Source: Myxococcota bacterium (GTDB taxonomy: Bacteria; Myxococcota; XYA12-FULL-58-9; JABJBS01). Taken from it: DNA of 28,863 nucleotides. Every line of letters starts with the position of its first letter. Position 1 is the first letter of the stretch. A model generated the notes under the pieces. That model searched no databases and was not told where the DNA came from. It was given only the letters and a program-made list of their open reading frames with translations. Location: contig JAYZAY010000005.1 of assembly GCA_036339465.1 (NCBI GenBank), positions 1 to 28,863 of the forward strand, read 5' to 3'. Position numbers and translations under genes: made by a program. This document shows positions 2,533 through 26,539 of this stretch, piece after piece.

Positions 2533-3330
2533 ATGCATAAAATCACAATGAGTCAACTGAAGGGTGGGGTGACCAAAACCGCCACCGCTGTCCATCTGGC
2601 CAAAGCTCTCGCAAAAAGGGAGCGGAGAACCCTCTTTATCGATCTCGATCGGCAAGCGTCCGGCTCCCTCATTCTTGGTGTGCCCACATCCCAAGCACAG
2701 CAAGCCTGTGTTGGCGACTGCCTTGGCCCCAAAGCCACCAAGTCCTTGCTCGACATCCTGGTGCAACCCAACAAAGAACAATCTCTCTATATAGCACCAG
2801 CTGCACCGCGGATGACTCAAATCGAAAGTGACCTCTACAAACACGCTCAGAGGGCCATGTTTCTAGACAAAATCCTCAACGAGGTCGAAGACCACTTTCA
2901 CTACGTTGTCATCGATACGCCACCAACCGACCAAACCTACACTCAGGCGGCACTCTTTGCTGCCGAATTGGTCCTCGCGCCCCTACCTTACGAGAGCGGT
3001 ATGCTCCAAGGTTGGCAAGACCTGTTCAACACCCTGACTGAGCTAAATGAATTTCGCAATGCCCCAGCCCAAATTGCAGGCGTCGTTACCAAATTCGACC
3101 GACGTGTTTCTATCACCAATTCAGCCTTCGAAGAAAAATTCCAATCGCTGGGCATGCCACTGGCAGAAACAACTATCCCAAAATGCGAAAAGATAAATCA
3201 AGCGGCCATCGTTCATCAAAGCCTCTTTGAATACGATCCAAAACATGCCGCATGTACCGCGTTTTTAAAATTAGCAGACGAAGTAATAGACGTCTTTGAA
3301 AAAGGTGAGGAGCAACGTCATGTCGCTTAA
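2533..3330 (+). CDS. parA: ParA/Soj-family partition ATPase (type Ib, no N-terminal HTH)
   Basis: Deviant Walker A KGGVTKT, A' motif IDLDRQ, Walker B YVVIDTPP, C-terminal T.IP....I.QA motif; 265 aa. Confidence 0.93.
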   Translation: MHKITMSQLKGGVTKTATAVHLAKALAKRERRTLFIDLDRQASGSLILGVPTSQAQQACVGDCLGPKATKSLLDILVQPNKEQSLYIAPAAPRMTQIESDLYKHAQRAMFLDKILNEVEDHFHYVVIDTPPTDQTYTQAALFAAELVLAPLPYESGMLQGWQDLFNTLTELNEFRNAPAQIAGVVTKFDRRVSITNSAFEEKFQSLGMPLAETTIPKCEKINQAAIVHQSLFEYDPKHAACTAFLKLADEVIDVFEKGEEQRHVA

Positions 3331-3634
3331 AAACAGTGCTGTAGCCGCTAAAAAGAAAAGCCTTTTAGCCATACCAGATCCAGAAGACCGCGAACTGCCA
3401 AAGAAATCCAGTAAGCCGGCGGCTGTCGTCGTTTCTGACCAAACCACCGATCCACAAGGATCCCATCCTCAACCCCAAACCACCACCAGCGAGGAGAGTA
3501 AGCGTAAAGTCACTCTCTACTTACCAACCGCCGTTCATAAGCGACTCAAGCACCTCGCCGTGGACCGAGATAGCCAAGTCTCCGCCATCGCCACGGACAT
3601 GTTGATACAGGGTCTCGAAAATATCAACGCATAA
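3320..3634 (+). CDS. Small ribbon-helix-helix centromere-binding protein (ParG/Omega-like), 104 aa
   Basis: GAGGAG RBS before ATG 3320, overlapping the parA end. Disordered N-terminus, then KRKVTLYLPTAVHKRLKHLAVDRDSQVSAIATDMLIQGL (beta-alpha-alpha RHH pattern). Confidence 0.82.
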   Translation: MSLKNSAVAAKKKSLLAIPDPEDRELPKKSSKPAAVVVSDQTTDPQGSHPQPQTTTSEESKRKVTLYLPTAVHKRLKHLAVDRDSQVSAIATDMLIQGLENINA

Positions 3635-3770
3635 ACATTTCGTATCTTGCACCCAGGCCCTCTTTTAAGCACGTGCCATAAGAATTCCATTCGCGGCGCC
3701 ACACCTAGCTCCGAAATCCTCACCAAACAAAAAAAATTTGAACTCCGCGCCCACACAACCCTCTCAAATC

Positions 3771-3818
3771 TGCACTGCCCGCTAACACCAACCCACGGGT
3801 GCACCGCCCGCTAACACC
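3771..3818 (-). repeat. Two inverted-orientation iteron-like repeats
   Basis: TGCACYGCCCGCTAACACC at 3771 and 3800. Its reverse complement GGTGTTAGCGGGCRGTGCA resembles the array sequence AGTGCTAGCGGGCGGCGCA. Confidence 0.7.
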
Positions 3819-3985
3819 GCGCACGAAAAAATAACCATGACCAACTTCTCCCCAAACACCCACAATACGAATACCTCTTTTATTTCCAGATACTTACGTA
3901 AGTCCCAACCTCCATCTCTCCGGTCGACTTGCGCTAGATTGGTCGCTCGACCTCACAAAAAGATCCAAATCCGATCAAAACGATG

Positions 3986-4174
3986 GCGCACAGTTCATAA
4001 ATGCTAGCGCACAGTTCATAAATGCTAGCGCACAGTTCATAAATGCTAGCGCACAGTTCATAAGTGCTAGCGCACAGTTCATAAGTGCTAGCGGGCGGCG
4101 CAAAAATGCTGGCGCGGGAAACAAAAATGCTAGCGCACAGGTGCAGAATGTTGGCGTCCAGTGCAAAGATGACT
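3986..4174 (+). repeat. Iteron array, 21-bp unit GCGCACAGTTCATAARTGCTA (5 near-perfect and 4 degenerate copies); replication origin
   Basis: Units start at 3986, 4007, 4028, 4049 and 4070, with degenerate units at 4091, 4112, 4133 and 4154. The period is two helical turns and the array lies directly upstream of the initiator gene. Confidence 0.9.
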
Positions 4175-4255
4175 TAATATCCATTAAGATTGTTAAAGAT
4201 TTTCAGCTCTACTATATAAATAAGATACTAGATCAATACTAGATCTACTAAAAGG
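4172..4255. promoter_or_regulatory. AT-rich DNA-unwinding element of the origin
   Basis: AT-rich tract between iterons and rep, with repeated AAGAT and ATACTAGATC x2. Confidence 0.65.
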
Positions 4256-4262
4256 CAACCCA

Positions 4263-5858
4263 ATGAGTGACCTTCATGATTCTGAAAATCAATCCAATGA
4301 CTACCCAGCGATTCCAGGGCAAATGAATCTCTTAGACAAAATTTCTCCTTATCGCCATCGCTCCGTTGACGATTTGAACCTCATTGAATTGCCAATTTCC
4401 TTATTGAGCAACTCCAATCAAGGTCTCGCACGCATGAAATTAGAGAGAGATCCAGGGGGGATGTTACGGATCCCACTTTCTCCAGATTCTACACGTTTTC
4501 TTTTGGTTCCTTCAGCCGAGGCTGTGCCCACCGCTCTCGGTGAACGTGTTTTACTCGCCCTCCTTTGGATGCACAATGACTTGTATCAATTTGCGACCCC
4601 AGAAATCACCTTTGATGTGAATATGTTTTTATCCACATATCTTTATCCCAATGTGAAAACACGAATTTCCCAGAGCCAACGCGATGCAGTCCTACAAGAG
4701 CTTGAGTGGTTCTCGTCAATGAGGTTAGGTGCTGTTGATTTTTTTCAACGCGTCATTCGTGATGTTGGCTCTGAAGAGGTTGTGATGCGAAACCCCCAAA
4801 ATGCAGCTATTTTTGAACAATTCCAAATTCATGCCCGAAGGCGCGATGCAGAGCCAGCCAAACAATCCAAACGTGGTGCTCGTCGCGTGGTTTACGAAAG
4901 AAAGGGTGGCCCTATTCGCGTCACGATACGCTGGGGAGAAACGGTGTACCGCTCACTTGCCAAAGATAAGCTGACCAAGCGACTCAATCCGCTTATCTTG
5001 TTGGAAGCTAAAAACCCACTCGATTTAAGATTATACCGTTGGCTTGATAAGCATTTTTACAAAATTGACGAGATCTTTGTTGATTCAATCATCAATTTTG
5101 CGCGCTACAAGATGTTTATGCAGGCGCAGAAACTTCATCAGAGTCCAAAGACCGCCTCCAAATACGCGATGACCAAGATTGAGCAAAGCCTCGAAAGATT
5201 ACGAGGTTTAAATTATCCTGTTTCCATTGAAGCCAATACTCGTTTTGATGACTACCGAATTACTTTTAAAAAGTTGGATATCAGCCAAAAAGACCCAAGC
5301 TCGGTAGTTGAAGCAAAACTCACGGAATCCGACGACCTGTTCCTTTTGTCCTTTTTTACGAAGCTACGTTTTGGAGATGCTGCACCAGATAGACCAATTT
5401 ACAACACCAAAGAAAAGCAGCTTGCCAAGAAATTTCTGGCGACATACAAAACCCTAGCTTACGCCAAGGAAATCGTGCAAGAGTGCTTCGGGATTATCAA
5501 ACGGGCTAAGGGCACCACCGAACACGTAAAAGCTTTTACCTATCTCACGTATTTTGCCAACGACGCTGAAGCCAATCTCAAGAAATCCAAACGTCGTCAG
5601 AAACCGAAAGAGAAAACCAATCCACTGGATGCTTGGGATATCTATCGAGAGAACCAACTTGAACAAGCAAAACGCGCCATGGCCTCCAATGAACAGGACG
5701 AAATGAGAGACGACATAGCCCGTGAATTAACGCAGGATGTTCAGTTTGGAAAACACAATGAAAAAACCAAACAGGCGCTTATTACGGCAGCTCTTGAAGA
5801 CGAACTTCTTCGGCGCTTGGGCGCTATGGATGAGCAGGAATTCCTAGCAACGTTATAA
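4263..5858 (+). CDS. repA: Plasmid-type replication initiator (RepA/RPA-like), 531 aa
   Basis: N-terminal DDLNLIELPISLLS and central PLDLRLYRWLDKHF resemble RPA-family motifs (DEMNLAEFP; P.ARRLYR.LDK.F). Adjacent to iterons and par genes. Confidence 0.78.
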   Translation: MSDLHDSENQSNDYPAIPGQMNLLDKISPYRHRSVDDLNLIELPISLLSNSNQGLARMKLERDPGGMLRIPLSPDSTRFLLVPSAEAVPTALGERVLLALLWMHNDLYQFATPEITFDVNMFLSTYLYPNVKTRISQSQRDAVLQELEWFSSMRLGAVDFFQRVIRDVGSEEVVMRNPQNAAIFEQFQIHARRRDAEPAKQSKRGARRVVYERKGGPIRVTIRWGETVYRSLAKDKLTKRLNPLILLEAKNPLDLRLYRWLDKHFYKIDEIFVDSIINFARYKMFMQAQKLHQSPKTASKYAMTKIEQSLERLRGLNYPVSIEANTRFDDYRITFKKLDISQKDPSSVVEAKLTESDDLFLLSFFTKLRFGDAAPDRPIYNTKEKQLAKKFLATYKTLAYAKEIVQECFGIIKRAKGTTEHVKAFTYLTYFANDAEANLKKSKRRQKPKEKTNPLDAWDIYRENQLEQAKRAMASNEQDEMRDDIARELTQDVQFGKHNEKTKQALITAALEDELLRRLGAMDEQEFLATL

Positions 5859-7551: not shown

Positions 7552-8056
7552 TACGCCCGTTTATATATTCCCCACAATCAATTAACCCCAAAGCACCAAG
7601 CCAAAAAAAAACTCCATGTAACACCAGCCCCATCAGGCGCTTCAGCCTGGTCTGCCCCAGCTTTTTCGAAGCTTCAGCCTTTTACAATTTACGCGTAGGG
7701 CCTTTTTCGGGCAGGGGTGGGTTGCATGCCGCAGCAAGCTTATTGGGTGGGTACCTATCTCTGCAAACAAGAAAGAGGGAGAGAAAGACATATGCGCGGT
7801 CGTGGTGGACTCTACAACGAAGAGTTCAGGTGGGTAAAAAGCTTCGCTGGAGTGCGTTACGCCGGCAGAGATACTTGCAGCCATACTCAATTGCCGAGCA
7901 AAAGCCGCAACTAAATCAAGAGCCACGCAATACGGAGCCACGTCCATTTTATCAAAGTGAAATTTATACTCTGCAAATTACACAGTAGGCCAAATTGACA
8001 TGCCGGCTCTATTTACGCAGATAAATGGAACAAAAAGTAGGCACGACTTTATAATG

Positions 8057-8084
8057 GTGCCTGATAATACATATTATGGATAAC
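8057..8084 (+). other. dif-like XerC/XerD recombination site
   Basis: GTGCCTGATAA-TACATA-TTATGGATAAC has the conserved ATAA-N6-TTATG core and 17/28 identity to E. coli dif. It is intergenic, and KOPS-like motifs converge on it. Confidence 0.65.
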
Positions 8085-8693
8085 CCATAACATAAAGTGA
8101 GTGTTGTCCAGGCAACTTTCAAAAGTCGGTACTTTTCTTGATCCGTTTTTTTCCTTCGTCTTTGTTATTCGAAGCCGCACGCACTCAATCTATTGCTCTT
8201 TTCCCAAGAACCCCCTGGACGAGGAGGATACAAATTATTACTTTCCCGTTCCCACAAAGACATTACTTTCCCCGTCACCATTGAAACCGATCTGGCGTAA
8301 AAATACGAGGATTCTTAGGAAGTAGTTGAACTCCCTTTAATCCAACTTACGAGACGACGTAGCCCTATGACGATTCCCACAAGGCACCTACCGTTTGATG
8401 ACGCTCGGAATATGGCAGGTGTTTTTCTGGGGGAAGCCTCTCTTTTACGAGGCTGAGAAGCTTGTTTAAATTTCCCCTTCATTTAAGCTTCAATCAGCAG
8501 CGCAGGATTTCACCAACACGTCCTGGAGAGAGTTTTGACCATAAAGCATCAAGTCTTGAACTTCTTGTCACTTTTTATGGAGAGCTTGGGCCATACTCAT
8601 CTACAGACGAAACATGATGGATAAAAGTAATTGGGACAAAAAGGAAAAGGCCGTTGATTTAAATCCACATCACCCGTGACCGCCTTATACACC

Positions 8694-9914
8694 CTACGAA
8701 GATACCGGTCTGCTCTTCGTAACCTTAAAACCGGCATCCACGATAGTAGTCACAACGGCTAGCTCGTCCATAGTACCTTTGACCAATGCCTGCCCAGCGG
8801 CAAAAGTAACCTCGGCACTTTCAACGCCCACCATAGCCATCAAACACTTCTGCAGACGGGAAGAACACCCACCACACTTCATCCCCTCAATTTGCAATGT
8901 GAACACAGATGGACCCACGTCACCCATACGACGGGGAAGACGTTGCCGGAGGTCGTCGAGGGCAAACTTTGCCAAAAGCCCGCTGAGGACCACGGCCGAG
9001 AGGGTTATCCACCAAGAAGTTGATTCGTGCGTGTGCTGCATCAAATCGAAAACCTGGTCGGGAAATAGCGAGTCAAAGAGCAAACCCAAACTGACACTCC
9101 CAATCACAATCGTCGCCAAATAAACCCCAAGCACTCGCTTACCAAGTCCTCTATACACGGCTCCTACCGTCGCCACATTGGTCGCGGGACCCGCCATAAG
9201 GAAAACCAAAGCAGCGCCCGTGGGTAATCCACTCGCAATTAATGCCGCCGCAATGGGGACCGATGCAGTGGCGCAAACATAGAGGGGAAGACCAATCATC
9301 AGGGCCCCAAGCATCGCCAACCACGGATCTGCTGCGCCCAATTCTACGATCCAACTCTCCGGTGCAAACACGCCGATGGCCGCCGAGACAACGATACCGA
9401 AAATGAGCCACCGCCAGACAGTCTGTAAAATTTGAAGTCCATGTGTAACGCCGTCATACAAACTTGGACGTGCGCCCTTTGAATTGGTCACTCCGAAATG
9501 TCCTTGCCTATTCTCGGGCTCTACCCAATCCGCCAGGAAACCTCCCACCAAGCCGGTAAGTAAAGCACTAAGAACCTTGAAGATGGCGAAGGGCCAACCC
9601 AGCAAAGACGCACTCACCAAAATTGAATCCACCCCCGTCTGAGGCGTGCTTATCAAAAAGCCCGTCGTCGCACCACGGCTGGCACCCTGCTGCCGCAGGC
9701 CGAGTCCTGTGGGGATAACTCCGCATGAACAGAGAGGAAGAGGAACCCCAAGTAAGACGGCTTTGACCACACCCCAAAATCCACGCAATTCGCGCTGAAT
9801 GAAATTCTTCGGAATAAAGACATGCAATAGTCCGGCGATGCCGGCGCCAAGAAGCAACCACGGAGAAAGCTTGAGCATAATAGCCCAGAGGGCCACGAAC
9901 ATTTCCATTATCAT
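8694..9914 (-). CDS. SO_0444/ArsP-type metal efflux permease with C-terminal HMA domain
   Basis: PLPLCSCGVIP, ISTPQTGVDS, PLYVCATASVPIAA and AGPATN motifs; C-terminal GMKCGGC. Confidence 0.92.
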   Translation of the reverse strand: MIMEMFVALWAIMLKLSPWLLLGAGIAGLLHVFIPKNFIQRELRGFWGVVKAVLLGVPLPLCSCGVIPTGLGLRQQGASRGATTGFLISTPQTGVDSILVSASLLGWPFAIFKVLSALLTGLVGGFLADWVEPENRQGHFGVTNSKGARPSLYDGVTHGLQILQTVWRWLIFGIVVSAAIGVFAPESWIVELGAADPWLAMLGALMIGLPLYVCATASVPIAAALIASGLPTGAALVFLMAGPATNVATVGAVYRGLGKRVLGVYLATIVIGSVSLGLLFDSLFPDQVFDLMQHTHESTSWWITLSAVVLSGLLAKFALDDLRQRLPRRMGDVGPSVFTLQIEGMKCGGCSSRLQKCLMAMVGVESAEVTFAAGQALVKGTMDELAVVTTIVDAGFKVTKSRPVSS

Positions 9915-10634
9915 TCCAACCCCAACCTCTTTGCTGGCAACTTATAGATAAACTCTACAAACGCATCACGAGAGCATCAACCGAAGATTGACGATTCCGC
10001 AGAGCTTGCCATACGCTACAAACAAAACCAACCACGTGGGAATCATGACTCAATCTATTAGAATCATCTTCTTTTTCCATAAAAATAAACGATCCTTTCA
10101 CCTCCCTGAGTCGCCAAAAAGATTTCCCATCTATTTTGCAGATATTCGGTGCCTAGGGATTCCATTGGCAAGCGCCTCGGCAGTAGAGCATTCGGATGGG
10201 TCAGTCATAATGTTGTAGAGAATCTGTCGCCCCTCAAAAGGAAACTGACCGACAACTCTGTCTTATCGACTTTGACGATTCCGAGTTTCAACATTATCTC
10301 AATGATTTGGTTCCGATAGTTTATACCTTTCCCCAAAGCACCCTCAACCAAGCGGCGTATGCGACTTTCTTTTTTAATCATCGTGTGTTGGGCTAGGGTC
10401 GTTGAAGCTTGGGGCTCCTTACCTATTCCGAAATTCTTCTCTCTTTTTACAATTCCAGCCCCCATGCTCCATACACCGAACGTTAAACTCGACCAAGACG
10501 ATGCACTCGAATTGAGCCTGGTTTTGGGGACCCCGATTTATTGATGCACGCGGATTACGAAAACATCGTCAGGGAGTGTTTAGCGCAAGACCTGTATCAC
10601 GATAAATCCCAAATTGGCGGGCTCCTCTTAGGTT

Positions 10635-11087
10635 TCACAAAAGGGCTTCGAGCCATCCATCGAGGCAAATATTCAATCGGTTTCGGCAGGCGATAAAGGC
10701 ATCTAAGTTTTGACCCACAGGATCCGTAATCCCGGTGAGGGGTCGAGAATGCTCTCCGAACTCCCACATACAGACGATTTTTTCCGTTAGTTCAGGTGCA
10801 TCGCCATGAAGCATCTTTTTATGCTCCGGTGCCATTCCCACAATGTGATCACATGTGGTCAAAAGAGAGATGCGTATCCCCTGGGAACGATGGTGGGAAA
10901 TATCAATACCTATATTTTTCATGGCTTCAACGGCATGAAGTGAAGCGGATTCGCCCTCAATCTTGAGGGTCCCCGCGGAGCAAACCTGTGCGAGAATGTT
11001 CAGACGCGCCAACTTGGCAATGGCCAAGCCTTCGGCCATGGGTGAGCGACAAATATTCCCACTGCAAATGAACATGACCTTTATCAT
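10635..11087 (-). CDS. Low-molecular-weight protein tyrosine/arginine phosphatase
   Basis: CSGNICRSPMAE P-loop, SAGT and the DP motif (ITDPVG). Confidence 0.93.
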   Translation of the reverse strand: MIKVMFICSGNICRSPMAEGLAIAKLARLNILAQVCSAGTLKIEGESASLHAVEAMKNIGIDISHHRSQGIRISLLTTCDHIVGMAPEHKKMLHGDAPELTEKIVCMWEFGEHSRPLTGITDPVGQNLDAFIACRNRLNICLDGWLEALL

Positions 11088-20737: not shown

Positions 20738-21595
20738 ATGAGCTTGTTTCGTTTAATTGTTAGAGCAAGTTTCCTTCTCTTAATCCCTACTTTCGCAAGT
20801 GCCGGCGATATAGGATTAGATACCAGCGTTTATGCTTCCTACGGGTTCGCCAATGGAACCTATGATAAGGATGGCAAAAAAACGGACCTCCTCGATGGTA
20901 CCAGTGGCAGCTTTCTTTTGATCGACCTAGGTGTCAATTATCAACTTATGGATAGGCTTAAGCTCAACATTGGACTGCCCCTCGTTCAAAAATCCTTCAA
21001 GATGGAAGCAATAGGGTTAGACGAATCCACTTTTGGATTGGGTGACCCTAGCATCGGCGCTACCTACTCTCACAACATTTCCGCCGCATTCTCGGTAAGA
21101 GGCGCTCTTAGCTTCAAAATTGCTCTCGGTAAAAAAGACCATTTCAAGGCCAACGCCAGCAGGGGTGACCACCACCTAAACGCGAAATTCATTATAAGTA
21201 CCAGTCCCATCGACAATCTGGGCATCGACTTAGATGGTGGTTATATCCTCACCCTAGGTGGGCCCACCGACGGTGCCGACATGGGAGACATCATCTACAC
21301 CAACCTCTATCTAGGTTATGAAATTTCTGGTTTAACACCCCGTTTGGGTGTGCACTTCTTCACCCAAGGTGAACCGAGCAACACAACCGCTAACCTACTT
21401 CGAGAATACCCCCAACAAGGCATCAGCCTTACCTTCGACCTCGCCTACGAAATCAGCGATGGTATGACCGTCAACGCCGGCATCGGAACCCGACAAATCC
21501 ACGAAGGAACCAATCTTCCTTGGGGATTTGCGCTCATGGGGAAAAACGTTAAGTACGGCCGGTCTTTCGGACTTGGGTTCAAAGCTGAGTTTTAA
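20738..21595 (+). CDS. Outer-membrane beta-barrel protein (putative MetA-pathway/transporter-like)
   Basis: Signal peptide ending ASA; amphipathic beta strands; GLGD motif; C-terminal GLGFKAEF. Confidence 0.75.
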   Translation: MSLFRLIVRASFLLLIPTFASAGDIGLDTSVYASYGFANGTYDKDGKKTDLLDGTSGSFLLIDLGVNYQLMDRLKLNIGLPLVQKSFKMEAIGLDESTFGLGDPSIGATYSHNISAAFSVRGALSFKIALGKKDHFKANASRGDHHLNAKFIISTSPIDNLGIDLDGGYILTLGGPTDGADMGDIIYTNLYLGYEISGLTPRLGVHFFTQGEPSNTTANLLREYPQQGISLTFDLAYEISDGMTVNAGIGTRQIHEGTNLPWGFALMGKNVKYGRSFGLGFKAEF

Positions 21596-22162
21596 TCCAA
21601 ATATTCAATGAATCCCTCTCGAAAGAACCAAAAAGCTCCTTCCGCTACCTGAAAACCGGTAGAGGAGAGACACTTTTTCTTGGTTCTTACGGGGAGAGAG
21701 AGTCCCATATTGAGCGTAGCCTAGCGACTCGCGCTTCATCTTCGGATCATTTTGCGAAGCGGTGAATTCCGAGAGCCTTGGAACGGAAGTTTCCATAAGA
21801 GCCAAATCTCTTCCGTTGCTTATGTTTATAATGCAATGCGTTACAGTAAAATCAGATGAATGTCTTTTTTGGTGCCCCTACTAAGTCGCCCATAGGATCG
21901 AAGTCGCCCTGATTCATCTTGTTTATTCAAGGCGACCTGATTGAAAGGAACCTCCTTTTTTTGGGGGTTGGGTTTCCAAGGAGACACCATTGTTGTGTTT
22001 CACAGGTAATTTCGACGCACCAGCTCCTCCCACCATCCGATACTCAGCACGACAGAAGTAAATTTCCTTCGGGAATCAAGACTAGAATACTGCTACCAAC
22101 AAATCCAAATAAGTTACCTCCCTCTCTTAGTGACGGTGAAGTCCTGAAAAAGAGCGACGACC

Positions 22163-24811
22163 ATGATTAGAACACTGAACCGCATTATCCCCACCGCTTT
22201 ACGGGCATTCCAAACCCCGGTAGCACGCCCCCTTCTGCGCTCTCTTATGACCGACACCCGAGCCACAGCACTAAAGCCCTCCCTCTGGGGAGCACAGCGC
22301 TCCATGGGGCTCCCCAATAACGGAAGATGGGGAACGACTCTCCCACGCTTTGTGAGCACCACCGCCACTCTTGCACCCTTAACCCCCAAAGCACACTACG
22401 AGCGAGCCATCGCTAAAGGGAAACCCTTAGGGGATTTCCGGGACTGGCGGATTCGAACCGCCGGAGCTGACGTGAGCTTCAAAACCGAGGGAAACGGCCA
22501 AGTGTGGCCGGCGCTTGTTTTAGAGAAGATTACATTCGTAGATCCAAAACCCAGGGACCTTATTCAGGAGAACCTCCAAAACTTCACCCATGTGACCACC
22601 CTCGAGGAGTTGAACGACGTCATCGTTAAGCTGATTCAAACAGAGTCGCCTTATCTCCGTGTGACGGATACGAAGTCAAAAGCCCTCAATGAGAACCACG
22701 GTATTACCAACCTGCGCAGGCAGGCGTTTATCCGGGCGCTCCGTGAGAGCGCGCTTGGCCAGACCCAACTTTCACCCTCCGATCGGGTGAAGGCGTTGGG
22801 GGTGATTGAAACGACGAATCTGAAACTCGCCACGGGGCGGAATTATGTAATGAAGGTGGGGAGCCACACAAACTACTGGCCCTACTGGAAAAATTATATT
22901 CCCCCACTGGTGCGTCTGCTGGAGCAGCACAAGGAGGGAGATCCGGGCTGGCATCAAATCAAGAATCGAATCTCGGATATTCTGCGCCGTAAAACCGCCC
23001 ATAACAGAACGCTTGATGAGAAAGACATCGAAAAAACCATGAATTTGGCGCTGGTAATGAGGCCTATGTTCTCCAACAACATGGGGCACCGAGTCTCCAT
23101 GGCCAAAGACAGCACCACCTTCAACCCTAAATACGAGCTACTCTCCATCGCAAAAACGGGCCTCCCAGAGGGGTTTGAGGAATACGCGGGCATACAGCTG
23201 GTGCGAGAGGAGCAAGGAACCATCCGAGTGGATTTCATGAGCGAGACGGATTCAACGGCAGCGAAACTCTCGCGGAAAAAGATGGGCCAGAAGATACCCG
23301 CAGCGTTACTCGATTTTGTCGAGAGTTGGGAGGTTCCAAAATCAGAATGGAAAGACCTCAACTTTCGCGAATTCGTACCGACCGAGCGACCCCGCCGCGG
23401 CGTGCCCATGGATTGGAATAACGACGGCGAGATCAGCTTCACCAAAACAGATATCTCCTGGTGGGGACATTGTCATAACGAAGCACCCCTAAACGCCATG
23501 GACATCGATCCACAGAAGGGGGTAAGCTTTTACCGAGCGACCCCGGGACTGAACCCAGAAACGGCAATGCAATACTACAGCGCCGCAGAGATCTGGGATA
23601 TTGCGGGCGCTTTCGTTTCAGACCATGAGGGCGGTTACACCGTCGTTGGCAGTGGCAGCCAAGCCAAGGTTGACTCAACCACCTTTGTGGGAATTCGAAA
23701 CCGCGGCCGCAACACACTCTCGCTTCAATTACCCCACGGTACGGTTCAGTTGACGGCGGAGTTGGTAAAACTCGTGAACGCGCAGGGAAAGGATTTCGAC
23801 CCTAAAAAAGCTTTTCGTCCCTATATGGAAAACGACGACGGCACCTTTGATGTCAACCCGTTTTTTGCGGGGGAAAATCCGAAGATCCCCGGGCTTATTA
23901 CCATCGATGTGGCAAAGCACGAAATCAAATTGGAGACCGAGTTTATCACCTTTGCCATCAATGGGCACCGGATGAAGGCCTGGGATTCCATCTCGATTAT
24001 GCCGGGTGACAAAAAATTTATCAAAATTGGCGAGGAGATCACCTCATTAAACCCCGATGGACGTGGCGGTGAGTTGACGCAACATTTTTATAACGCGCAC
24101 TCCGAGGAGTATTACAGCGTAATTAAAGCGGTGAATCCTAACAATAACTACGTGCCCGTTGAGATTGAGACCTCCGAACCCGTTAAGATAACCGGGATCA
24201 TGCATTCTAGTGACACCGAGTTTGACTCTTCCAAAGAGCTCTTTGAGTTCTATATGGAAAATCCAGGATTGCCCAAAACATATGACACATCTCCTGGCGA
24301 GGCGGTATGGAATTATCCCGTGAACAAGGAGTCCTTCGTGATGAAGAAGGAGGCCACGAGAGTGGAAGGCGGGAAGGCGTTCACCTATCGAACCTTCGAG
24401 TTGTCCTACACCACCATGGGGGGCCCTGGTAAAAAGGTGAATTTTATTCTGAAATACAATGAAGCCGGCGAAATCGTTGCGGACCTCGGCCTCGATCCGC
24501 TTCCGGATTTCGCTTATCGCTATGACCGCTGGGTTTCGGCGCCGGTGACCTCCGATGCAAACGGCAAGACCGCGGTGAATGCGAACGCCCTTCGAAATGG
24601 ATACCTCTTAAATCGGAATGGTAACAACTTTGATGACGTTCAGACGGACTTGTGGAAGAGCCAGGCCGCCATCCTTTACGCAGGATTGAGCAACACCTCG
24701 ATAATTGGGACAGCGTTTCTTTTTGAGACCCAAGACGGTGAATTCATCCGATTCACGAATCGAGAAGATTTTTTGGCCGCCGTGGAAGCAGATAAGAAGC
24801 TTCAGAAATAG
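22163..24811 (+). CDS. 882-aa protein with a GP42/TGase-elicitor-like Cys-His catalytic domain and a long Arg/Thr/Leu-rich N-terminal extension
   Basis: SWWGHCHNEAP (C437-H438) and DTSPGEAVWNYPV (W716) parallel the W.G.CHAWAP and D...G.EVWNQPV motifs of the family. Confidence 0.65.
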   Translation: MIRTLNRIIPTALRAFQTPVARPLLRSLMTDTRATALKPSLWGAQRSMGLPNNGRWGTTLPRFVSTTATLAPLTPKAHYERAIAKGKPLGDFRDWRIRTAGADVSFKTEGNGQVWPALVLEKITFVDPKPRDLIQENLQNFTHVTTLEELNDVIVKLIQTESPYLRVTDTKSKALNENHGITNLRRQAFIRALRESALGQTQLSPSDRVKALGVIETTNLKLATGRNYVMKVGSHTNYWPYWKNYIPPLVRLLEQHKEGDPGWHQIKNRISDILRRKTAHNRTLDEKDIEKTMNLALVMRPMFSNNMGHRVSMAKDSTTFNPKYELLSIAKTGLPEGFEEYAGIQLVREEQGTIRVDFMSETDSTAAKLSRKKMGQKIPAALLDFVESWEVPKSEWKDLNFREFVPTERPRRGVPMDWNNDGEISFTKTDISWWGHCHNEAPLNAMDIDPQKGVSFYRATPGLNPETAMQYYSAAEIWDIAGAFVSDHEGGYTVVGSGSQAKVDSTTFVGIRNRGRNTLSLQLPHGTVQLTAELVKLVNAQGKDFDPKKAFRPYMENDDGTFDVNPFFAGENPKIPGLITIDVAKHEIKLETEFITFAINGHRMKAWDSISIMPGDKKFIKIGEEITSLNPDGRGGELTQHFYNAHSEEYYSVIKAVNPNNNYVPVEIETSEPVKITGIMHSSDTEFDSSKELFEFYMENPGLPKTYDTSPGEAVWNYPVNKESFVMKKEATRVEGGKAFTYRTFELSYTTMGGPGKKVNFILKYNEAGEIVADLGLDPLPDFAYRYDRWVSAPVTSDANGKTAVNANALRNGYLLNRNGNNFDDVQTDLWKSQAAILYAGLSNTSIIGTAFLFETQDGEFIRFTNREDFLAAVEADKKLQK

Positions 24812-25282
24812 AACCTGTGGGAAACCGTTCTCTAAAAACAACGCACTCAATGCACCAACCAATTGTCCCAGTTCCTCACCAATCAGGAGTGGAAAACCTC
24901 CTTATCCTTAGAAATGTCAAAATCCCCGTTTCTCGCTTTCATAAACACATTGGCGCCCCGCCAACACATGGTTTGTCGGCTAAAAAACCTAGCGGTATAT
25001 GGGGTTGGTTTCAGGATTTTTCGAGCAAAAGATAACGGCTGGCCTACGCTGTTAGGGGGATGACTAGACAGCCTTGTCGAAGTGCCAGAAATGCAACCGC
25101 TCGGTGAACTAAAAGGCAGGGTAATTTCGATTCTGTAAGGCAATGATTCAAAAAACGGCACAACCAAAATCACGGCAACAAAAATACCCCATACCCTCAA
25201 TGAGATGACCGAATTAGAACCTAGAAATCCAAATAGAAACATGCTACCAAACCCTAAGAACCATGCGTCTTTAGGAACGGAA

Positions 25283-26539
25283 ATGTCGAAAATATCTCGA
25301 ATAATTAGCCAGTTACTTGCCCTCGCTGGGCTTTCGGCTGCGATCTACCTGACACGCCTTCATTTTATCGGCAGTGGTGCAGAAAGTGTGCTCTGCAGCA
25401 CCCTCTCTGACAGCGGCTGCACTCTCGCTCTCAATTCCCCTTTCGCAACCATCGCTCATATCCCCCTCTCTCTCTTTTTGATTGGCGTTTATGCCACACT
25501 TTTCTTGGCAGGTTGGTTTTACACCGGAGCCCGCAATACACGTCCATGGGCAATCATAGCGAGCATTTTATGCGTGGTCATCCTTACCGGCGGCATTTTC
25601 TTGCTCGGCGTTATGGCTGAATCTAAAAGTTATTGCCCTCTCTGCCTCTTTATGGATGGGTTCAATCTCATTTTGAGCTTTATTTGGTTGCGTTCGGCTC
25701 TCGGGCAAGGCGGACCTATTGTCGGTGTTAAACCAATTACCATAACCACGCTTATCTTACTACTTGTGGTCTCATTGGTGGTAACCACAAAAAATCAACT
25801 ACTGACAGAATCGAGCAAATCTCAATCAACTCCAGCAACCGCAGTTCCCATTTCCACTCCCAATCATAAACTCACCGTCGAGCAATGTCAGGATGTCGAA
25901 CTCTCGGCCCTCGAGATTTCGGATTTTCTTTGCCCCTATTGTAAAAAATTAGGCTACAACCTTTCCAACGTTCTGACCGATTGCGGAGCCCGGGTCGATA
26001 AACGTTTCGTCCATTTCCCCCTAGACAAAAGCTGCAATCGCTTTCTTTCCCGTGACCTTCATCCGGGAGCGTGTCGTCTTGCCGAAGCCTCGGAATGTGC
26101 GCGAATCCAAGGTAAATTCACAAGCTTTGCTGCGGCGCTCTTCACCGAAACCCCGAAAACCGATGATGCCCTCTGGGCCCTGGCCACCAAACAGGAACTC
26201 AACCTCAAGCAATTCCAAACCTGCTTGGGAGAAAGGCAAACCCAAGACCGCGTTCGAACTGATATTGAATTGGCCCATCGGCTTGGTGTTCGCGCCACGC
26301 CTACTTTTTATATCAACGGGCGCCGTCTCGAGGGCGCTCTTTCCAAAGAGCTTCTAGAAGTAGAAATTTCGAGAGCACTGGGCAAAGACCTGCAAGAAGC
26401 GAAATTCATTTCCGGACAACCTACCACAAACGGAAGCTGGCCCACTTCCGAACCGGTCGAGGCATGTGGTGCCGAAAAATTCAGCCTGGAAATGGAAGGC
26501 TGTAGTGCTCCACAAGAGACCGATTATTTCGCTCCCTGA
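25283..26539 (+). CDS. VKOR-DsbA/thioredoxin fusion disulfide-bond formation protein
   Basis: VKOR loop Cys pair (C.......C...LNS), CPLC, then DFLCPYC, HFPLD..CN and cis-Pro motif ATPTFYINGR. Start could be 25205 or 25241. Confidence 0.9.
   Translation: MSKISRIISQLLALAGLSAAIYLTRLHFIGSGAESVLCSTLSDSGCTLALNSPFATIAHIPLSLFLIGVYATLFLAGWFYTGARNTRPWAIIASILCVVILTGGIFLLGVMAESKSYCPLCLFMDGFNLILSFIWLRSALGQGGPIVGVKPITITTLILLLVVSLVVTTKNQLLTESSKSQSTPATAVPISTPNHKLTVEQCQDVELSALEISDFLCPYCKKLGYNLSNVLTDCGARVDKRFVHFPLDKSCNRFLSRDLHPGACRLAEASECARIQGKFTSFAAALFTETPKTDDALWALATKQELNLKQFQTCLGERQTQDRVRTDIELAHRLGVRATPTFYINGRRLEGALSKELLEVEISRALGKDLQEAKFISGQPTTNGSWPTSEPVEACGAEKFSLEMEGCSAPQETDYFAP

Follow-up and report, generated by a model that had tools for sequence, protein, structure and literature searches.

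A cationic, amphipathic N-terminal leader on a GP42-like protein of a Myxococcota bacterium

The reading frame, its start and its folded body

The window analysed in this work is a stretch of 28,863 nucleotides, positions 1 to 28,863 of the forward strand of contig JAYZAY010000005.1 in the Myxococcota bacterium assembly GCA_036339465.1. It contains an open reading frame (ORF), P0001, that encodes an 882-residue protein in which a basic leader of 72 residues precedes a large folded body. A first-pass annotation, made from the sequence alone, had described this N-terminus as resembling a mitochondrial presequence on a bacterial enzyme, and had proposed either an effector aimed at the mitochondria of a eukaryotic host or prey or a disordered export signal of the kind that type III secretion systems (T3SS) use. 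We find that the leader is real and that its destination, whether mitochondria, a membrane or an export route, is unproven. The ORF and its parts are as follows.

21596..22162 (no strand): upstream intergenic region of 567 bp, with one sigma-70-like site at 21825-21852 (+)
22145..22147 (+): in-frame stop codon TGA, 18 nt 5' of M1, read from the sequence
22163..24811 (+): whole ORF P0001 (882 aa, on contig C5), a basic leader followed by a GP42/TGase_elicitor-like body
22163..22378 (+): leader, residues 1-72, rich in Thr, Ser, Pro, Ala and Leu and conserved in P0053, P0002 and P0070
22169..22210 (+): predicted cationic amphipathic helix, residues 3-16 (RTLNRIIPTALRAF), hydrophobic moment (muH) 0.87; the AlphaFold2 (AF2) model has a helix at residues 2-15 with low confidence
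22217..22303 (+): residues 19-47, with helix-prone segments at 19-28 and 39-47 and conserved R..LRSLMTDTR and W42
22247..22249 (+): alternative in-frame ATG, M29, lacking an upstream Shine-Dalgarno-like motif
22304..22306 (+): M48, another alternative in-frame ATG; the GGGGAG upstream of it ends at a distance of 11 nt
22334..22372 (+): candidate processing or recognition site, residues 58-70 (TTLPRFVSTTATL), with Arg62-Phe/Leu in 4 of 4 homologues
22385..24808 (+): folded body, residues 75-882, AF2 confidence (pLDDT) mostly above 90, predicted GP42-type transglutaminase/papain-like core with large beta-rich insertions
23459..23488 (+): motif WWGHCHNEAP, W433-P442, in which C437 (the only Cys of the protein) and H438 are invariant in 42 of 42 sequences
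24284..24322 (+): motif DTSPGEAVWNYPV, D708-V720, with invariant D708, N717, Y718 and P719; candidate region for a third catalytic residue

The in-frame TGA at 22145-22147 makes M1 the most upstream possible start of this frame and the sole one 5' of M29 and M48. Alignment of homologues, which the first-pass annotation had proposed as a check on the start codon, places the same Met at the beginning of four proteins from two lineages (P0001, the fragment P0053, P0002 and the fragment P0070); these proteins can be aligned throughout the leader, with 47-55% identity over residues 1-47 and with in-frame insertions and deletions (indels) only. M48 is conserved in neither P0002 nor P0070 and the frame is open from the shared Met in all four proteins, which speaks against a true start downstream. 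Over codons 1-70, the codon-usage log-odds of frame 0 is +3.9, compared to -60.6 and -20.4 in the other frames of the same strand, and the GC content at third codon positions of the leader (0.60) matches that of the body (0.63). A Shine-Dalgarno-like motif is missing from 359 of the 1465 confident genes of this genome. These comparisons indirectly show translation from M1, and on balance we take M1 to be the true start, with some use of M48 possible. An antisense ORF of 91 aa (22114-22389, minus strand) overlies the leader-coding DNA.

That the protein is an enzyme had been assumed in the first-pass annotation. Pfam and NCBIfam contain no family for P0001, and its identity as an enzyme comes from fold and motif. 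The AF2 model of the protein, built from a 42-row alignment, has a mean pLDDT of 88.1 and a pTM of 0.83. The top-ranked Foldseek match to this model is 3TW5, the structure of GP42 from Phytophthora sojae (probability 1.00, E = 4.6e-4, 172 columns), and VIA-align superimposes the two with a Z-score of 7.8 and an rmsd of 4.7 (265/344 residues), the next match having a Z-score of 4.8. In the ESM Atlas, the clusters closest to residues 73-882 are of TGase_elicitor proteins, with a score of 0.89, 187-191 features in common and a TM of 0.51-0.52 depending on the hit. The corresponding Pfam model, PF16683, gives sub-threshold matches in 6 of the 42 aligned relatives (best E = 0.045), and P0001 itself falls below the gathering score. 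The only stretch where the family profile aligns to the sequence of 3TW5 is DTSxGxAVWNYPV, with a weak E-value of 0.52; the third catalytic residue expected of this enzyme type is an Asn on a core strand or an Asp on a nearby helix, and the invariant N717 and D708 of this stretch are candidates for it. A phmmer search of PDB with residues 405-520 returned chance antibody matches only.

GP42 is thus the best, and the only clear, fold match to the body of P0001 (3TW5; PF16683). The two proteins have in common a D...VWN.PV stretch, and the C437-H438 pair of P0001 matches by motif the arrangement for which GP42 is singled out in part of one published account, a catalytic His directly after the Cys ('CH'; PMC10318531). 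They differ in that the body of P0001 is ~810 aa long as opposed to ~350 aa, so that the 265 aligned residues are spread over residues 180..845 of the model; in that P0001 lacks both a Pfam match and a signal peptide; and in that P0001 is bacterial, from Myxococcota-type metagenome-assembled genomes (MAGs), and carries N-terminal modules absent from GP42. These comparisons establish an enzyme fold, and together the 3TW5 fold, the invariant CH motif and the Atlas neighbours lead us to model the body as a diverged, much enlarged cysteine enzyme of the GP42/TGase_elicitor type.

Relatives of this protein are few. A word-indexed search gave 47 matches, and among 1.84 billion representatives there were 79 at E ≤ 0.001 and 42 at E ≤ 1e-30; members with a named source are annotated as hypothetical proteins and come from MAGs of Myxococcota, 'Deltaproteobacteria' or Kofleriaceae. 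Bdellovibrionota and Myxococcota, two phyla with many predatory members, are the main sources of the Atlas TGase_elicitor clusters. A literature search gave no paper linking TGase_elicitor to Bdellovibrio or myxococci among the matches listed, and none of these ties the domain to predation.

Composition, conservation and origin of the leader

Residues 1-70 contain 9 Arg, 1 Lys, a single acidic residue (D31) and 15 Ser or Thr, for a net charge of +9. The Arg, Lys and acidic counts are those given in the first-pass annotation, and they also hold for residues 1-72. Its statement that no Sec h-region is present was likewise correct, as the most hydrophobic 12-residue window has a Kyte-Doolittle mean of 0.68; an RR pair of the Tat type is absent from residues 1-72, so the leader has neither the h-region of at least 10 residues nor the twin Arg by which Sec and Tat signals are recognised. 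Given the acidic fraction of the body (0.133), the probability of finding at most one acidic residue in 72 is 0.0004. Arg accounts for 9 of the 10 basic residues (0.90), compared to a ratio of Arg to Arg plus Lys of 0.42 in the body (P = 0.0024) and 0.52 across the genome.

We placed these values against the other N-termini of the genome using our own crude gene calls (3218 genes, 84% coding), of which 2925 proteins were long enough to score. At most one acidic residue in the first 70 aa was found in 29 of these 2925 proteins, and at most two acidic together with at least eight basic residues in 27. Nearly all of these acid-poor N-termini belong to signal-peptide or transmembrane proteins, a Lys-rich histone-like protein, ribosomal protein S11 or genes with doubtful starts. 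The muH of 0.87 over residues 3-16 is matched by 0.2% of the 2925 N-termini and is the highest among the 22 that are basic, acid-poor and non-hydrophobic; over the same residues, the homologues have values of 0.84, 0.73 and 0.73. The odd composition and the amphipathicity of the leader therefore lie beyond chance.

Most of the leader is disordered in the AF2 model, with pLDDT below 50 for residues 1-6 and 10-68 and ~90 from residue 70. The segment RFVSTT, at residues 62-67, places R62-F-V-S ~10 residues before the folded body; this is a candidate cleavage context of the mitochondrial processing peptidase type (Arg at -2/-3), under a motif definition that is degenerate. Matches to the Tom20-type motif phi-x-x-phi-phi, whose definition is degenerate too, occur at residues 5 and 25. 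The N-terminus, being cationic, biased to Arg, nearly free of acidic residues and apparently helical and amphipathic at its extreme end, supports the earlier comparison with a mitochondrial presequence as far as physical hallmarks go; the destination that this comparison implied is unbacked.

Conservation of the leader was assessed in its three homologues. P0053 is 87% identical to P0001. P0002 is identical at 22/47 positions over residues 1-47, 11/25 over residues 48-72 and 45/68 over residues 73-140, and the corresponding values for P0070 are 26/47, 13/25 and 46/68. The two indels, of 4 and 2 codons, are both in frame. Among 47-aa windows of the folded body, 27% are conserved no better than the leader. 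Composition is kept across the homologues (9-11 Arg, 0-1 Lys, 1-2 acidic residues), as is the amphipathic moment (0.73-0.87). In near-identical contigs from four studies, the sole natural variant in the leader is 22192 C>G, a synonymous change at the third base of Pro10, a single variant being too few for a pN/pS estimate. Comparison of these sequences indicates that the leader is under purifying selection in a small clade. Given the conserved composition, the conserved amphipathicity and the shared start, the leader behaves as a signal, and neither as noise nor as a mis-called start.

This leader is an exception in its family. In 39 of the 42 aligned members, the body is preceded by 113-151 aa that include at least 10 acidic residues, and only 3 of the 42 rows carry the basic leader. 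The canonical N-terminus follows the pattern MSTxGVRxRF ... ALLQPAxYL and, when folded alone from 14 relatives' loci, forms a helical domain of ~90 aa (pLDDT ~88-90) followed by a disordered, Pro-rich linker; structurally this domain matches nothing specific, the best Z-score being 6.0, to helical repeats of a generic kind. Three paralogues are present in the genome studied here: the query on C5 with the basic leader, a copy on C85 with the canonical domain, and a copy on C40 whose N-terminus is short and whose C-terminal end carries acidic repeats. The repeats of the C40 paralogue (L003 1465-4176) comprise at least 7 tandem copies of an acidic, Ser/Thr/Glu-rich unit of ~19 aa, TSPASEEASETxEAATN.

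The family is found in 13 of 41 genomes, including this one (G000), and the leader form in none of the 40 relative genomes, those of the same family matching only from about residue 75 at no more than 49% identity. When DNA of close relatives was sought among genome and metagenome contigs, the best matches were canonical forms, 48-49% identical. In a quick maximum-likelihood tree (SH-aLRT support, midpoint root), P0001, P0003 (N-truncated), P0002 and P0004 form one clade with 100% SH-aLRT support and a long stem of 0.54, nested among marine proteins of canonical form in a group that is itself 100%-supported and to which the C85 paralogue of the same genome belongs; P0010, P0011, P0026 and P0039 have canonical-type N-modules by eye. 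Because the leader clade is nested among canonical forms, the C85 copy included, the tree indicates that the leader is derived and arose once, after a duplication, by replacing the folded N-domain in a young clade of marine paralogues.

Several other sources of the leader were considered and rejected. Homology to the canonical N-domain received an hhalign probability of 0.09%; MAFFT sets an LLQPxxY of P0002 under the canonical LLQPxxY, which is anecdotal. A frameshift origin, or a remnant of the old domain upstream, finds no counterpart in any frame of 21501-22460, where the best match to the canonical profile has an E-value of 0.41, and the leader profile matches nothing in all frames of 15 canonical N-module DNAs (best E = 0.57). 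The first-pass annotation had suggested surveying the genome for similar N-termini. Searched against 25,528 six-frame fragments of the genome, the leader profile found itself only; within this genome the leader is not a shared module, and no other of its proteins has one like it. A database search with residues 1-75 scored 79 candidates, none at E ≤ 10, but was insensitive, since it also missed P0002; an Atlas search with the same residues gave no usable match.

Other branches of the family vary at the same end. Sec-like N-termini, with a basic n-region and then a hydrophobic stretch, occur in 3 of 15 distant members (P0087, P0115 and P0119), P0106 has a hydrophobic stretch after 45 residues, and P0089 and P0106 carry a P_proprotein domain (the P-domain of proprotein convertases) at the C-terminal end. 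The combination of a P-domain with TGase_elicitor is also found in the Atlas, in Myxococcota. The Sec-like signals and P-domains of distant members imply an extracytoplasmic site of action for at least some branches, and the N-terminus appears to be the variable, localisation-determining part of this family.

Genome, habitat and neighbouring genes

As a survey for T3SS and type IV secretion system (T4SS) genes had also been suggested, we looked for their markers in the assembly (92.8% complete, 4.2 Mb). In this genome we found one FHIPEP gene, which is read as the flagellar export gate because it is single-copy, and neither a second, injectisome-type FHIPEP nor a VirB4-type T4SS ATPase. A type VI secretion system (T6SS) is represented by one TssC and a PAAR protein, both on contig C54, with no Phage_GPD/VgrG match in the genome. 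None of the paralogues on C5, C85 and C40 lies near T6SS genes. Across the 41 genomes, 13 have the family, 7 have TssC and 3 have both, so the family does not track the T6SS; five genomes that are 92-100% complete (G002, G011, G016, G025 and G037) have the family and lack TssC. With one exception, the DNA runs listed for the locus are from seawater or marine metagenomes, and they belong to several studies. The exception (share 0.23) is labelled as a single organism and not as a metagenome. The organism resembles a marine bacterium that is flagellated and free-living.

Shell genes of a bacterial microcompartment (BMC) are present elsewhere in the genome. On C61 (G000:C61:17000-36999), BMC-T-like, BMC-H and BMC-P (EutN) genes and an aldehyde dehydrogenase gene form a compact locus at ~8040-10905 (-) of that piece, and a separate tandem-BMC protein is encoded on C9; an encapsulin shell was not found in the genome. 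A glycine dehydrogenase (GcvP) gene adjoins the C61 locus, whose aldehyde dehydrogenase has an N-terminus that resembles a classical encapsulation peptide.

No recurrent gene partner emerged among 47 flanking proteins from the loci of 24 relatives together with the C85 locus. Outer-membrane beta-barrel genes lie directly 5' of the query (20738-21595 (+), Phenol_MetA_deg type) and of the C85 paralogue (L002 2499-3488 (-), OMP_b-brl type). A shared barrel partner was rejected; the two barrels are unrelated (E = 2.9), the arrangement is missing in relatives, and the juxtaposition is probably a coincidence. A HEAT-repeat gene is found directly 3' of a family member in three loci (L003 4270-5181, the genome's own C40 copy; L005 3721-4221; L028 8773-9720), and its product may be a partner or inhibitor of the family enzyme.

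The window holds several further features.

2533-3330: ParA-type ATPase gene (AAA_31/CbiA)
3986-4093: 21-bp tandem array, 5.1 copies, 98% matches
4263-5858: 531-aa ORF without a Pfam match, after the array
8694-9914 (-): ArsP-type permease fused to a heavy-metal-associated domain
10638-11087 (-): low-molecular-weight phosphatase or arsenate-reductase-type gene
25205-26539 (+): gene downstream of P0001, a VKOR membrane domain fused to a DsbA/thioredoxin domain, an envelope enzyme that forms disulfide bonds

The stretch 2533-5858 looks like an iteron-type replication and partition module, and 8694-11087 (-) looks like a small metal or arsenic resistance cluster.

Possible roles of the leader

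Our tentative preference is for the leader as a lineage-specific localisation element, in which an anionic, energised membrane would be the docking site of a cationic amphipathic helix and a conserved flexible segment would lead from the helix to the Arg-Phe/Leu site. On contact, the first ~16 residues would fold into the helix, which would then dock on an anionic, inside-negative membrane, either the inner membrane of the producer or, after release, a membrane of a target cell. The remaining ~55 residues would form a flexible tether recognised by a partner, with the conserved Arg-Phe/Leu at its end possibly processed. The physics would be that of a mitochondrial presequence, but with no need for a mitochondrion. 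A cationic amphipathic helix is also what targeting peptides have in common with helical amphipathic antimicrobial peptides, according to part of one source (PMC8049325), although here it belongs to an 882-aa enzyme and is followed by 55 further conserved residues.

A number of observations weigh against this localisation element. Membrane binding is proposed from sequence features; Pro10 falls in the middle of the proposed helix, where AF2 confidence is low; and specific motifs are conserved along all 72 residues (TDTR, W42, GTTLxRF and STLxPxTP). Such motif-level conservation exceeds the needs of a simple lipid anchor and fits a protein partner, such as a translocon, an adaptor or a protease, which favours an export tag or organelle import. 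Others concern the start. The codon-usage score of the leader lies at the 3rd percentile among real gene starts, and the antisense frame scores +2.2, close to the +3.9 of the sense frame, probably as a side effect of the leader's odd composition (GC 0.61 at codon position 2). The Shine-Dalgarno-like motif at M48 (GGGGAG) is better than that at M1 (AAGAG only), the gene call of the orthologue P0004 starts downstream, and the evidence for the start is sequence-based, with DNA runs only among those listed for the locus.

The leader could instead be a non-classical secretion tag, a lineage-specific recognition domain that would load the enzyme on an export machine such as the T6SS, by analogy to RIX, an Arg-rich domain of Vibrionaceae effectors; we regard this as possible but doubtful. 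As described in part of one source, RIX resembles the leader in being an Arg-rich N-terminal segment of ~55-70 aa that precedes the toxic or enzymatic body of a protein from a T6SS-bearing marine bacterium, and the authors of that source speculatively raise the existence of further family-specific secretion domains for the T6SS (PMC10435454). The genome has a T6SS of its own (TssC and PAAR on C54), other branches of the family appear extracytoplasmic, with Sec-like signals and the P-domain, and conserved motifs along the entire leader would suit a protein that recognises it. GP42 is described as a secreted or cell-wall enzyme. On the other hand, all three paralogues sit away from T6SS genes, no Phage_GPD/VgrG match was found, and the family and TssC overlap in only 3 genomes of 13 and 7, with five genomes at least 90% complete that have the family without TssC. 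The leader is also confined to one protein and one protein family, with no polymorphic cargo (the genome profile search found only itself), whereas RIX is described, in the portion of the source available, as present on many C-terminal domains and as known only from Vibrionaceae and Moritellaceae (PMC10435454).

Two further readings are unlikely. In the first, the leader is the pro-peptide of a zymogen and holds the transglutaminase-like enzyme in an inactive state until cleavage at the conserved Arg62. N-terminal pro- or activation peptides are present in microbial transglutaminase and in factor XIII. The conserved Arg-Phe/Leu right before the folded body would suit this role, and the leader, like the canonical N-domain with its linker, sits in front of the catalytic body. 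However, AF2 does not dock the leader on the body (pLDDT below 50), a weak objection given that only 3 of the 42 rows have the leader, and an Arg-biased amphipathic helix at the extreme N-terminus is unneeded for inhibition.

In the second, equally unlikely, there is no signal at all: translation begins at M48, residues 1-47 being 5' leader RNA, or the leader is a tolerated disordered remnant without function. The GGGGAG 11 nt before M48, as opposed to AAGAG only at M1, the 3rd-percentile codon-usage score and the downstream gene call of P0004 fit this reading. It has to contend with a frame that is open from a shared Met in four proteins of two lineages at 47-55% identity with in-frame indels only, with the absence of M48 from P0002 and P0070, with leader conservation inside the range of folded-body windows, with composition and amphipathicity kept across lineages, and with the 359 of 1465 confident genes that have no Shine-Dalgarno-like motif either.

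Delivery to an organelle, the proposal of the first-pass annotation, we consider improbable. Here a eukaryotic host or prey cell would receive the enzyme, which would be imported into mitochondria (or plastids) and cleaved near Arg62. Among effectors, cysteine enzymes built on a transglutaminase or papain-like fold are common, and the conserved hallmarks fit: a charge of +9 over 70 aa carried by Arg and not Lys, one acidic residue, a helix in the top 0.2%, two phi-x-x-phi-phi matches and an Arg-Phe/Leu ~10 residues before the folded body. A precedent described in part of one source is Map of enteropathogenic Escherichia coli (EPEC), which reaches mitochondria by means of an N-terminal targeting sequence after T3SS delivery (PMC3015060); like Map and presequences generally, the leader has a cationic, Arg-biased, amphipathic N-terminus, then an unstructured stretch and an Arg site before the mature domain. 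Eukaryotes are the targets of some T6SSs, as part of another source states (PMC10435454), and this genome has a T6SS.

Against this stand the search of the 92.8%-complete genome, in which no injectisome-type second FHIPEP and no VirB4 were found, the apparently free-living, flagellated marine bacterium from seawater and marine metagenome runs, for which no eukaryotic host is known, and the presence of such a leader on one protein only. The mitochondrial effector found no backing here, nor did the alternative of a disordered T3SS-type export signal, no second FHIPEP having been found. At 72 aa the leader is also long for a mitochondrial presequence, which typically has 20-60 aa. Moreover, according to the available part of one report, ~3-5% of random genomic sequences are acceptable to import machineries provided that they form cationic amphipathic helices (PMC8049325), which makes presequence-likeness alone weak evidence for a mitochondrial destination. 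The broader version of this idea, in which the leader is a true presequence for organelle import or for crossing a prey membrane, acquired by one paralogue in an uncultured, predator-like marine bacterium, and the enzyme acts as an effector inside an energised compartment of planktonic eukaryotic or bacterial prey, has an equally small chance of being correct.

Least probable is an encapsulation peptide that recruits the enzyme into the genome-encoded BMC shell: encapsulation peptides are an amphipathic helix plus a linker, as the leader is, and shell genes lie beside aldehyde dehydrogenase on C61 (BMC-H, BMC-T-like, BMC-P) and on C9 (tandem-BMC), but the gene is on C5, away from both loci, the helix-linker of the C61 aldehyde dehydrogenase is about neutral while the leader is at +9, an 810-aa transglutaminase-like body is no known cargo type, and same-family relatives lack the leader form.

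The components of this protein, a GP42-like enzyme and a cationic amphipathic leader, are of known kinds; as far as we have searched, their combination and its origin by domain replacement are new. The protein belongs to a family of ~900-aa GP42-like cysteine enzymes that is concentrated in Myxococcota and, judging from the Atlas neighbours, occurs in Bdellovibrionota too, and whose members may be transglutaminases, proteases or deamidases. If the leader serves only as the membrane tether that we tentatively prefer, the gain would be a modest one in annotation. Should it function in targeting or export, it would offer a clean natural example of the birth of a signal, in which a folded N-domain, still retained by sister copies in the same genome, was swapped for a disordered cationic leader. 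This would bear on the debate over whether any cationic amphipathic sequence can readily become an organelle presequence. And if the organelle reading were true, a presequence would have evolved de novo in a free-living marine bacterium, through the replacement of a folded domain.

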